Made by a program: the position numbers and the translations under genes. A DNA stretch of 64,000 nt from an uncultured Alphaproteobacteria bacterium (lineage in GTDB: Bacteria; Pseudomonadota; Alphaproteobacteria; SP197): positions 1,113,156-1,177,155 of the forward strand of contig OY282363.1 of assembly GCA_958295695.1 (NCBI GenBank), written 5' to 3'. How positions within the stretch are numbered: position 1 is the stretch's first letter; the number at the start of each line of letters is the position of its first letter. A model generated the notes under the pieces. That model worked only from the letters and a program-made list of their open reading frames with translations. It was not told the DNA's origin and did no database searches. Positions 17,071-18,252 of the stretch are shown one piece after another.

Positions 17071-18252
17071 CTACCGCGCCTCGTCCAGGGGCCGCGGGCA
17101 AGCCGTCGCGCCGGCGATGCGGCGGGCGAGGTACTGGCAGAACTCGAAGTTCGGGCGCTCCAGGTAGCTCAGGTGTCCGGGCCGGGCCAGCCCGGCCTTC
17201 ATGCCGCGGAAGACCGCCTCGGTGCCGACCTTGTCCTCCTCGTTGACCGCGTCGAGGATGTCCTTGGCCCTGGCGATGTATCCGGCGCCCTGCGGGTCGT
17301 CGACGAAGTCGGGCGCCATGCCGCCGCCGTAGAGGATCCTCACCCGGTCCACGCCCTCGGGCTGCAGCACCAGATACCAGAAGTAGCCCGGCGTCAGCGT
17401 GATCATGTGGCTGGGGTAGATCGTGACGAGCGCGGTCGTGCGCCGCCACTCGCCCTCCAGATAGGCGTTGCCGGGGTGGGCGTTGGCCAGCGCGAACTCG
17501 GATTCCTTCGTGATCCAGTGGTAGTTGAAGACCTCGCCGCCGGGCGGCATCGACATCTCCTCCACCTTCGACTGGTTGCCGATGGTCGGCCCGTGGAGCC
17601 GGAACAGGTGGTAGCTCTCCATGAAGTTCTCGGCGAGCACCTTCCAGTTCGTGTTCCAGACGCGCTCCTCGCGGAAGGTCTCCCGGTAGTCCTCGAACCG
17701 GTAGCGCCCGGTCACAATCTCCTTCACGGGCGCCAGACGCTCCGCCACCGGCTCGATGGCGTCGTTCAGCGTGACATAGACCCAGCCGTCCCATTCCTCG
17801 CAGCGCAGCTCCGGCAGGCGGTAGTCCTCCTTCCTGAAGGCGGGGCTCCCGTCCATGTAGGGCGCGCCCATCAGCCTGCCGTCGAGGCCGTAGCTCCAGG
17901 CGTGGTAGGGGCAGGCGATGAGCTTGCGGTTGCCCCGGCCCTCCAGCAACACGCTCATCCGGTGCAGGCAGACGTTGGAGAAGGCGCGCGTCGCGCCGTC
18001 TCTCCCCCGCAGCACGACGACCGGCTGGTCGGCGATGCGCATGGTGACGTAGTCGCCGGTCCGCGCGATGGCGTCGGCCCGCCCGGCGCAGATCCACTCC
18101 TTCGCGAACACGTCCCGCCGCTCGCGCGCGAGGAACGCCTCGGAGGTGTAGACGCCGGGCGGCGCGGCCCGGGCCTCCTCGAAGGGCCGTTCCGCGGTCG
18201 CGCGCAGCTCGCGCAACAGATCGTCGAGGGCCATCGCCGATGCTCCCATCAT
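17071..18252 (-). CDS. Rieske [2Fe-2S] non-heme iron oxygenase alpha subunit, GbcA/CntA/Stc2-like family
   Basis: 393 aa starting MMGASAMALDDLLRELRA. Rieske motif CLHRMSVLLEGRGNRKLIACPYHAWSY. The C-terminal catalytic domain carries H...H...D mononuclear-iron-type residues. The track ORF is overextended to 19611. Confidence 0.8.
   Translation of the reverse strand: MMGASAMALDDLLRELRATAERPFEEARAAPPGVYTSEAFLARERRDVFAKEWICAGRADAIARTGDYVTMRIADQPVVVLRGRDGATRAFSNVCLHRMSVLLEGRGNRKLIACPYHAWSYGLDGRLMGAPYMDGSPAFRKEDYRLPELRCEEWDGWVYVTLNDAIEPVAERLAPVKEIVTGRYRFEDYRETFREERVWNTNWKVLAENFMESYHLFRLHGPTIGNQSKVEEMSMPPGGEVFNYHWITKESEFALANAHPGNAYLEGEWRRTTALVTIYPSHMITLTPGYFWYLVLQPEGVDRVRILYGGGMAPDFVDDPQGAGYIARAKDILDAVNEEDKVGTEAVFRGMKAGLARPGHLSYLERPNFEFCQYLARRIAGATACPRPLDEAR

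Follow-up and report, generated by a model that had tools for sequence, protein, structure and literature searches.

The 64-kb window analysed here, which is the whole stretch of DNA taken from contig OY282363.1 of an uncultured Alphaproteobacteria bacterium, carries on its reverse strand a gene for a Rieske non-haem-iron oxygenase α subunit of 387 amino acids (aa) at positions 17071–18234. Judged by its sequence, the protein belongs to a separate subfamily of the quaternary-amine branch of Rieske oxygenases, with the group V enzymes CntA and Stc2 as the closest relatives that have been characterised. In several related lineages the gene recurs together with genes for fused double ectoine synthases (EctC-EctC, or double EctC) and CphZ-like zinc amidohydrolases, and this association points to a pathway, not yet described, that would handle a small nitrogen-rich solute. 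We slightly favour the view that the oxygenase serves within this catabolic module as an oxidative N-dealkylase or hydroxylase of a cationic nitrogen solute. A lone Rieske α subunit is common by itself; the association of Rieske, double-EctC and CphZ-like genes was not found described in the literature that we searched.

Placement of the oxygenase and its electron supply

In a window of about 70% GC, real genes were told from spurious high-GC open reading frames (ORFs) by means of their codon-position GC content. The start codon of the oxygenase gene is best placed at the ATG at 18234, which has a GGGAG Shine-Dalgarno motif 8 nucleotides (nt) upstream and gives the N-terminus MALDD that is common to homologues, and public assemblies call the same 387-aa protein (P0001). 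The start at 18252 chosen in a preliminary description of this DNA lies 18 nt too far upstream and would add six codons, yielding a 393-aa protein of which P0001 covers 98% at 100% identity. That description had recognised a Rieske oxygenase α subunit from its CxH...CxxH motif and catalytic domain, and this assignment holds. The frame is intact and matches both the Rieske domain (Pfam PF00355; 5.9e-19; score 68.2 bits, cutoff 20.3) and the catalytic domain Ring_hydroxyl_A (PF00848; 4.3e-19; score 69.7 bits, cutoff 24.9). Residue numbering along the translation places the codons of the Rieske [2Fe-2S] ligands, which read C89-L-H91 and C108-P-Y-H111, at 17902–17970 on the reverse strand. The active-site motif E202-N-F204-M-E206-S-Y-H209-L-F-R-L-H214 (17593–17631, reverse strand) was located by alignment to CntA (DNYMECYHCGPAH) and Stc2 (ENNRECYHCSSNH), and its H209 and H214 align with the iron-site histidine pair in the motif of these two enzymes. 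A putative third iron ligand, D334 (codon at 17233–17235, reverse strand), stands opposite Stc2 residue 360, which we take to be an iron ligand of Stc2, in an alignment segment that falls below threshold. C89, H91, C108, H111, F204, E206, H209, H214 and D334 are all invariant across 52 family members. Since the frame is open and all metal ligands are present, the gene is considered intact. An AlphaFold model made from 52 homologues has a pLDDT of 93.2 and a pTM of 0.91.

The top NCBIfam model is that of GbcA (NF058607), which scores 122.5 bits against a cutoff of 670 and covers residues 26–220 only; the models of anthranilate, benzoate and phenylpropionate dioxygenases score 76–84 bits. When sequences in the PDB are ranked, CntA (1e-35), 3N0Q (3e-29) and Stc2 (1e-28) precede the α3β3 aromatic dioxygenases (5e-26 or weaker), with the CntA and Stc2 matches confined to the N-terminal ~190 residues. 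A Foldseek comparison with the PDB, using the AlphaFold model as the query, returns CntA first (TM-score 0.73–0.85), followed by Stc2 and 3N0Q at identities of 22–24%, and the terephthalate, salicylate and biphenyl enzymes rank below these three. The protein is an α-only Rieske monooxygenase of the quaternary-amine branch, presumably with a CntA-like α3 assembly.

Group V is defined by a glutamate that bridges the Rieske and iron centres (E205 in CntA). Clade Va, which comprises CntA, choline monooxygenases and OxyBAC, makes a π-cation contact to the quaternary nitrogen with a Tyr or Phe that corresponds to CntA Tyr203, whereas clade Vb, which comprises the demethylases GbcA, BmoA and Stc2, has Asn at this position and binds the substrate carboxylate to the iron (PMC7948474). 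A CxxC pair next to the iron site has been described for CntA and Stc2 (PMC10952381). When the active-site strings are aligned (window protein, AENFMESYHLFRLH; CntA, VDNYMECYHCGPAH; Stc2, WENNRECYHCSSNH), E206 of the window protein falls opposite CntA E205 and the equivalent Glu of Stc2 as the group V bridging residue. F204 aligns with CntA Y203, which corresponds to the group Va state, and this Phe is invariant in the 52 members. The group Vb Asn is not present in the window protein, whereas both Stc2 and 3N0Q read ENNRECYH at this site. The CxxC pair is also missing, with E-S207-Y-H-L210 in place of the E-C-Y-H-C of CntA and Stc2.

The group Va enzyme CntA of Acinetobacter baumannii (PDB 6Y8J/6Y9C) is thus like the window protein in being its top match in sequence and fold, in being an α-only enzyme of similar length and in its bridging Glu, and its Tyr203 is matched by the aromatic Phe204 at the π-cation position. 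However, the two proteins are only 23–24% identical, Cys206 and Cys209 of CntA are replaced by Ser and Leu, and no CntB-type reductase gene is adjacent. Stc2 of Sinorhizobium meliloti (PDB 3VCA/4QUP) and its group Vb companions GbcA and BmoA have the same fold, Rieske ligands, iron ligands and bridging Glu, but they carry Asn where the window protein has Phe, and the window protein lacks the CxxC pair. The gbcB and stc3/stc4 reductase genes are described as neighbours of their oxygenase genes, in contrast to the window oxygenase, near which no reductase gene is found. Plant choline monooxygenase (CMO, group Va) shares the aromatic residue. The JGI label ‘choline monooxygenase’ on several family members is an automated KO (KEGG Orthology) assignment, and a context of EctC-EctC, CphZ-like hydrolases and polyamine-type transporters does not point to choline.

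The absence of a nearby reductase gene, as initially reported, was borne out throughout the 64-kb window. No FNR (ferredoxin-NADP reductase)-type reductase, Fer2 ferredoxin or ferredoxin reductase was found by Pfam among the 50 called proteins, and no redox partner emerged when gap ORFs were read by eye or when all six frames were scanned with regular expressions for plant-type and adrenodoxin-type [2Fe-2S] motifs and for FNR. Besides these 50 proteins, the urease genes were named via the sister strain L081 (compared loci are given by L numbers), and the ORFs at 23.7–27.3 kb carry the Pfam names of L081, with four of them also compared with NCBIfam. Apart from the oxygenase, the window encodes a single Rieske protein, the bc1-complex subunit next to cytochrome b, at about 44.8–45.4 kb.

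A dedicated reductase was likewise not found beside the homologues in L081–L093 that have precomputed Pfam labels, nor among 114 neighbour proteins of 19 orthologous loci. Because the reductase is also missing beside homologues, the lone α subunit is better seen as a family-wide habit than as an anomaly of the window locus. The only redox partners linked to the family in the loci examined are small adrenodoxin-type ferredoxins. A Fer2 gene of this type (110–112 aa) lies directly downstream of the oxygenase gene in Methylobacterium (L010, 11230–11559) and Paracoccus (L012, 11130–11468), and another is located 4–5.5 kb away in L087 (15441–15773) and L093 (14701–15033). Electrons are likely supplied by a small ferredoxin and a separate reductase that is shared with other systems, rather than by a GbcB/CntB-type fusion. 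The proposal that the enzyme needs a reductase of the latter type is therefore not indicated by the partners linked to its orthologues.

These results bear on the possibility that the protein works as a genuine N-demethylase of the GbcA/Stc2 kind, acting on a betaine (glycine betaine, stachydrine or a carnitine-like compound) and depending on a GbcB/CntB-type FNR-ferredoxin fusion reductase encoded elsewhere in the genome. Although GbcA is the top NCBIfam model, the group V bridging Glu is present and a one-carbon-capturing GcvT-like protein is encoded next to the orthologue in L091, we consider this explanation unlikely. The score of 122.5 bits is far from the 670-bit GbcA cutoff, identity to CntA and Stc2 is only 22–24%, the diagnostic residue is the Phe of group Va and not the Asn of GbcA, BmoA and Stc2, the CxxC pair of CntA and Stc2 is missing, and the linked partners in the loci examined are stand-alone adrenodoxin-type ferredoxins with no GbcB-type reductase among them. 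The resemblance to the glycine betaine, carnitine and stachydrine enzymes that was noted at the outset is real, with CntA and Stc2 nearest, but ‘GbcA-type’ is too specific a name for a protein with this score and with Phe in place of Asn.

A homology search yielded 3,877 homologues among 8,000 candidates scored, the best 120 of which are 59–100% identical to the window protein and 371–424 aa long. Metagenome-assembled genomes (MAGs) supply homologues at 80–88% identity, Rhodospirillaceae and other alphaproteobacterial MAGs at 72–75%, and Paraburkholderia, Burkholderia gladioli, Pandoraea and Trinickia at about 60–65%; a genome scan gave, among the matches listed, Caballeronia, Rhodobacterales (Paracoccus, Tropicimonas, Salipiger) and Methylobacterium at 53–59%. 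The homologues at 60–88% identity are thus widely spread and have about 100 invariant positions. Their source labels read ‘SRPBCC family protein’, ‘aromatic ring-hydroxylating oxygenase subunit alpha’ or ‘choline monooxygenase’. Our literature searches found no paper that gives the family a substrate, no link between Rieske enzymes and ectoine, and no matching new group V substrate.

Orthologues at 55–64% identity have neighbouring genes for a LysR regulator and for an ATP-binding cassette (ABC) importer of the PotA/PotB polyamine type (L003 and its relatives in Paraburkholderia, Pandoraea and Caballeronia; L088). A flavoprotein gene is also present in 10 of 19 loci, and was assigned to the MSMEG_0569 family in L003, where this was checked; 8 of 19 loci contain a RidA gene. 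The polyamine-type importers fit a cationic amine substrate.

Two other settings of the gene were encountered. L083–L085 and L089 contain a copy of the Rieske gene that is 90% identical at the nucleotide level, with a match that extends over the gene length only, and the copy has a GC content of 66% in a genome of 63% GC. This looks like a recent horizontal transfer of a single Rieske gene. In L083 and L085 the copy (9989–11140) is located among tiny unannotated ORFs, and an IS66 transposase gene is nearby in L085. L090, from the same metagenome sample as L081, presents another catabolic setting (10652–15553), in which an 80% identical oxygenase gene adjoins genes for a solute-binding protein and a second, diverged Rieske oxygenase, followed by TRZ/ATZ-type amidohydrolase, class-III aminotransferase and BKACE-family genes.

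Linkage to double-EctC and amidohydrolase genes

Downstream of the oxygenase gene and in the same orientation is a gene for a 276-aa protein composed of two fused ectoine-synthase cupin domains (15946–16776, reverse strand). Pfam Ectoine_synth (PF06339) matches it in two stretches at 7.6e-61, the NCBIfam model PRK13290 scores 215.8 bits over two domains against a cutoff of 128, and PDB entry 5BXX is matched at 6e-21. Both EctC halves retain Glu, Tyr and His (E59/Y87/H95 and E198/Y226/H234, all invariant), which we take to be the metal ligands of EctC structures. The gene begins at 16776 with the conserved sequence MLIRT, just upstream of which lies GGGGGAGGAAG. With this start, the gap to the Rieske gene is 294 bp and not the 240 bp first given. 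Neither ectA nor ectB is found near the double-EctC gene in the window.

The 294-bp spacer (16777–17070) has a GC content of 56%, compared with ~70% for the genome, and among the loci compared it matches only the near-identical strains L081 and L082. It contains a near-perfect palindrome on the reverse strand (AGAACCTGTTAACATTAATAGGTTCT, 16931–16956) followed by a T-rich tract; this palindrome occurs once in the window, where none is expected by chance, and represents either a terminator-like hairpin or an operator. Rfam gave no match at the gathering threshold over the whole window, nor at E ≤ 1 over 16700–18450, and a scan of 15800–18500 for the sigma-70 consensus revealed no promoter-like site. 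The two genes may have separate transcription signals in the window, and their co-transcription is uncertain. The idea that the oxygenase gene heads an EctC-EctC operon is consequently uncertain for the window with its hairpin-bearing spacer, although in relatives the genes are only 1 nt to about 0.1 kb apart.

The linkage of the two genes is conserved beyond the window. In seven of 10 lineages of the clade of at least 73% identity, the Rieske gene is followed on its own strand by one to four double-EctC genes. One such gene follows in the window and L081, and one lies about 0.1 kb downstream in L011. L087 and L093 have two, beginning 1 nt past the Rieske stop codon, together with a divergent TauD gene. 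Three follow in L157, four stand in tandem in L001, and in the marine Rhodospirillaceae MAG lineage (L091/92/98/99) a GcvT-like gene comes first and a single double-EctC gene second. The remaining lineages (L083–85/L089, L086 and L090) have no EctC gene within about 8–10 kb of the Rieske gene, and no double-EctC gene was found beside any of the 55–64% orthologues. Gene content between the Rieske and double-EctC genes differs between lineages. The double-EctC family is small: when 5,991 candidates out of a library of 5.8 billion were scored, 613 proteins reached E ≤ 0.001. Given this rarity and the adjacency in seven of 10 lineages, chance adjacency is not credible. The functional tie to double EctC that had been proposed from the window alone therefore draws support from a linkage that recurs in several independent genomes.

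In L001 (6704–10000), L094 (4449–9870), L157 (2697–4736) and L087 (11196–12849), between two and five double-EctC genes stand in a tandem array, as diverged paralogues that are 35–66% identical to the window copy. Between the Rieske gene and the array in L001 and L157 there is a conserved opposite-strand ORF of ~120 aa (6147–6500 and 2214–2585, respectively, both on the reverse strand), whose sequence looks like that of a single-domain cupin. Solitary EctC-type proteins without an established function have been reviewed (Czech et al. 2018, PMC5924519), and an arrangement of fused double EctC linked to Rieske and M14 genes is not mentioned there. The window protein is like these solitary proteins in having no ectA or ectB alongside, but it differs in being a fused tandem of ~276 aa whose relatives occur in arrays of up to five and are linked to Rieske and M14 genes.

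Divergent from the oxygenase gene, across an intergenic region (18235–18363) with an inverted repeat (CTGTCAAGCCG/CGCCTTGACAG) at 18287–18315, is a pair of genes for CphZ/AotO-like M14 zinc amidohydrolases of the AstE/AspA family. This pair, which is part of the conserved module, was missed in the preliminary description. Amidohydrolase 1 (18364–19503, forward strand, 379 aa; Pfam AstE_AspA_cat) matches PDB 8EIN over its full length at 6e-57 and shares 75% identity with its counterparts in L001 and L091, and amidohydrolase 2 (19511–20614, forward strand, 367 aa) is a paralogue 45% identical to the first. The pair points away from the Rieske gene in the window and likewise in L001 and L091, and the short contig of L157 has one copy that is cut by the contig end. 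Entry 8EIN is the cyanophycin dipeptide hydrolase CphZ, which hydrolyses β-Asp-Arg (PMC9974463). Both paralogues retain the zinc H-E-H triad, the catalytic Glu and the α-carboxylate-binding R102/N112/R113 of CphZ/AotO. In contrast, the guanidinium pocket D222/E223 of CphZ is D/T in paralogue 1 and K/S in paralogue 2, and in paralogue 1 the β-Asp-binding D181 is replaced by His and K366 by Val. Because of these changes in the substrate pocket, the paralogues probably hydrolyse N-acyl amino acids other than β-Asp-Arg. An identity of the pair as bona fide DoeB or CphZ was rejected on score (31.6 bits against 402.7) and on the substrate-pocket residues.

Six genes are conserved at 56–80% identity between the window and the marine MAG L091. 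They include a class-V pyridoxal 5'-phosphate (PLP) enzyme that is cysteine-desulfurase-like and UstD/FGM3-like (20965–22203, reverse strand, 412 aa; 80% identical to the L091 copy) and a CMD/AhpD-family protein (24331–24873, forward strand; 56% identical to the L091 copy). The top solved relatives of the PLP enzyme are FGM3 (9X4U, 4.6e-80) and UstD (7MKV, 1.8e-52). UstD is a decarboxylative aldolase that joins decarboxylated aspartate to an aldehyde, and it is a matter of speculation that a UstD-like enzyme would fit an aldehyde released by the oxygenase. The GcvT-like folate-binding protein, whose gene separates the Rieske gene from EctC-EctC in the marine MAG lineage, has as its top models the C-terminal domain of trimethylamine N-oxide demethylase, GcvT and the dimethylsulfoniopropionate demethylase DmdA, and it is the only direct hint of one-carbon release.

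Other genes are specific to the window, namely those for a PLP-dependent decarboxylase, an FlK-DSBA fusion, an EamA-family transporter, an agmatinase-family ureohydrolase and urease. The decarboxylase (22208–23638, reverse strand) has L-2,4-diaminobutyrate decarboxylase as its top model but at 206 bits against a cutoff of 900, and is not an orthologue. The fusion, identified by Pfam as an FlK-type hotdog thioesterase joined to a DSBA-like domain (14877–15890, reverse strand), is encoded 55 bp downstream of EctC-EctC and is not conserved in relatives. Within the module of the sister strain L081, which is 99% identical, a 1.4-kb insertion encoding an AAA_14/DUF4143 ATPase (L081 6072–7494, corresponding to window ~20742/20873) is present between the class-V PLP gene and the second amidohydrolase gene.

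An alternative explanation is that the Rieske gene is independent of the EctC-EctC and amidohydrolase genes, and that a mobile, stand-alone catabolic oxygenase is found at this site by chance. The orphan copy of 90% nucleotide identity in a 63% GC genome, the 80% identical copy in the other catabolic cluster of L090, the existence in L094 of a module without a Rieske gene, the hairpin-bearing spacer between the genes in the window and the transposase genes near the Rieske gene in L011 and L093 could all be read in this way. We nevertheless regard independence as improbable, since the rare double-EctC genes still follow the Rieske gene on the same strand in seven of 10 lineages even as the intervening genes vary, and the two are only 1 nt apart in L087 and L093.

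Proposed pathway and its alternatives

If the oxygenase indeed acts on a cationic nitrogen solute within a catabolic module, electrons would pass from NAD(P)H through an unlinked ferredoxin reductase and a small [2Fe-2S] ferredoxin to the Rieske cluster (C89/H91/C108/H111), and would then cross the subunit interface via the bridging E206 to the mononuclear iron (H209/H214/D334). F204, at the position of CntA Tyr203, would help to hold the cationic nitrogen. Activated O2 would then be used to hydroxylate a C-H near the nitrogen of a small polar cationic or zwitterionic compound, and the outcome would be either a hydroxylated product or N-dealkylation with the release of an aldehyde. The double EctC could open a cyclic amidine to an N-acyl diamino acid, or close it in the reverse direction, and the two CphZ-like zinc amidohydrolases may subsequently strip the N-acyl group from the amino acid. 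A catabolic direction is preferred because of the hydrolases, the tandem paralogue arrays, the importer genes in relatives and the lack of ectA and ectB. Candidate substrates are ectoine-type amidines, methylated diamino acids and polyamine-like amines. So far, the module clade has been found in Alphaproteobacteria-like genomes and MAGs.

A more specific version of this proposal joins the Rieske oxygenase, the double EctC, the CphZ-like pair and the UstD-like PLP enzyme, with the GcvT-like protein added in the marine lineage, into an unrecognised oxidative pathway of alphaproteobacteria-like soil and marine bacteria. The solutes degraded in such a pathway would be cyclic amidines of the ectoine type, or methylated diamino acids or polyamines, and the oxygenase would perform N-dealkylation or ring-adjacent hydroxylation with electrons from a shared housekeeping ferredoxin. 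We advance this version tentatively, as a possibility that is rather doubtful in its full form.

Several observations weigh against a role of the oxygenase as a solute N-dealkylase or hydroxylase within the module. Its catalytic domain beyond residue ~214 is too diverged from CntA and Stc2 for sequence alignment, which makes any transfer of their pocket chemistry weak, and no biochemical characterisation of any family member was found in the literature. The Rieske and EctC-EctC genes are parted in the window by the 294-bp spacer with its hairpin, and three lineages (L083–85/L089, L086 and L090) have Rieske copies that are 76–87% identical in surroundings that are free of EctC genes over about 8–10 kb. 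Conversely, L094 carries five double-EctC and three amidohydrolase genes with no Rieske gene, which implies that the oxygenase is accessory to the module and not part of its core. Double-EctC genes of ≤57% identity mostly lack conserved neighbours (80 metagenome loci; none outside the closest clade), and the GcvT-like gene is present in one lineage only.

The cluster might instead be biosynthetic, with the Rieske enzyme as an EctD-like tailoring hydroxylase of a new ectoine-like compatible solute, for which the double EctC would be the synthase and the EamA protein the exporter. The residues that we take as catalytic metal ligands are kept in both EctC halves, and genes for the EamA-family transporter, as a possible exporter, and for the PLP-dependent decarboxylase are nearby. 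This option could also accommodate solitary EctC-type proteins, for which no function has been established (PMC5924519). However, the cluster encodes neither an EctA-like acetyltransferase nor an EctB-like transaminase, its conserved partners are CphZ-type hydrolases, the EamA and decarboxylase genes are not conserved with the module, and both the tandem sets of as many as five paralogues and the polyamine-type importers of the wider family look catabolic. A biosynthetic role thus appears very unlikely.

Least probable by far is a non-functional remnant, left over from an aromatic ring-hydroxylating dioxygenase whose β subunit and reductase have disappeared, as the Pfam name ‘Ring hydroxylating alpha subunit’ and the α3β3 enzymes lower in the match lists might suggest, because the frame is intact with every ligand present, homologues of 60–88% identity with about 100 invariant positions are widespread, and the 387-aa protein resembles α-only enzymes in length, has a bridging Glu rather than the Asp of α3β3 dioxygenases and is nearest to CntA and Stc2 in sequence and fold. 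Ring_hydroxyl_B, the β-subunit family, was not detected by Pfam in the 64-kb window and is not among the 25 commonest families of the 114 neighbour proteins of orthologues. The clustering with β-subunit-dependent aromatic α subunits that had been named as grounds for refuting the initial assignment was accordingly not observed.

Wider window and significance

An actinomycete biosynthetic cluster, which the GC content of ~70% had brought to mind, was ruled out because genes for the bc1 complex, PCuAC/SCO1, MoxR/BatA and a malic enzyme-PTA fusion give the window the content of an alphaproteobacterium-like chromosome. The module is flanked by genes for urease subunits, a 2-oxoglutarate-Fe(II) oxygenase and an agmatinase-family ureohydrolase (6446–9968 and 26295–27302), which may point to a broader use of nitrogen from guanidino compounds and urea.

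A low-GC island at 10300–13850 (0.54 compared with ~0.70) contains a 301-aa ORF without a Pfam match and a gene for a ProV-type ABC ATPase (11842–12873), and it differs in the near-identical strain L081, which carries a RelE toxin gene. The ProV-type ATPase (11.8–12.9 kb) was ruled out as an importer for the module, as it has no accompanying permease or binding-protein genes and resides in this strain-variable island. Further away, at 54470–56925 (reverse strand) and 38 kb from the module, a gene for a Creatinase_N/M24 protein adjoins a major facilitator superfamily transporter gene; its top model is the ectoine hydrolase DoeA, but its 178 bits fall short of the 575-bit cutoff, so that it does not count as an orthologue. 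A 494-aa protein with about 12 ankyrin-like repeats (TPLHLAAQ...GADPNAR) is encoded at 30544–32028 (forward strand) together with an ORF at 29209–30090 (forward strand). The 3-kb stretch around the ankyrin-like gene is without the usual third-position GC signal, and may have been acquired from elsewhere.

Rieske oxygenases of non-aromatic nitrogen solutes such as carnitine, betaines and choline form a small and recently recognised group, which is important in the nitrogen and carbon cycles of the sea and in the formation of trimethylamine in the gut. The window protein represents a large and tightly conserved sister subfamily, in which about 60% identity is retained between the window protein and its Burkholderiales counterparts. 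If its link to the neighbouring genes is only positional, it would be an ordinary Rieske oxygenase that borrows a housekeeping reductase, which is a common situation. The recurrent combination of Rieske, double-EctC and CphZ-like genes nonetheless offers a testable lead to the role of solitary EctC-type proteins and to the solutes used by this clade. Should the oxidative pathway outlined above prove true, it would give solitary EctC-type proteins a catabolic role.

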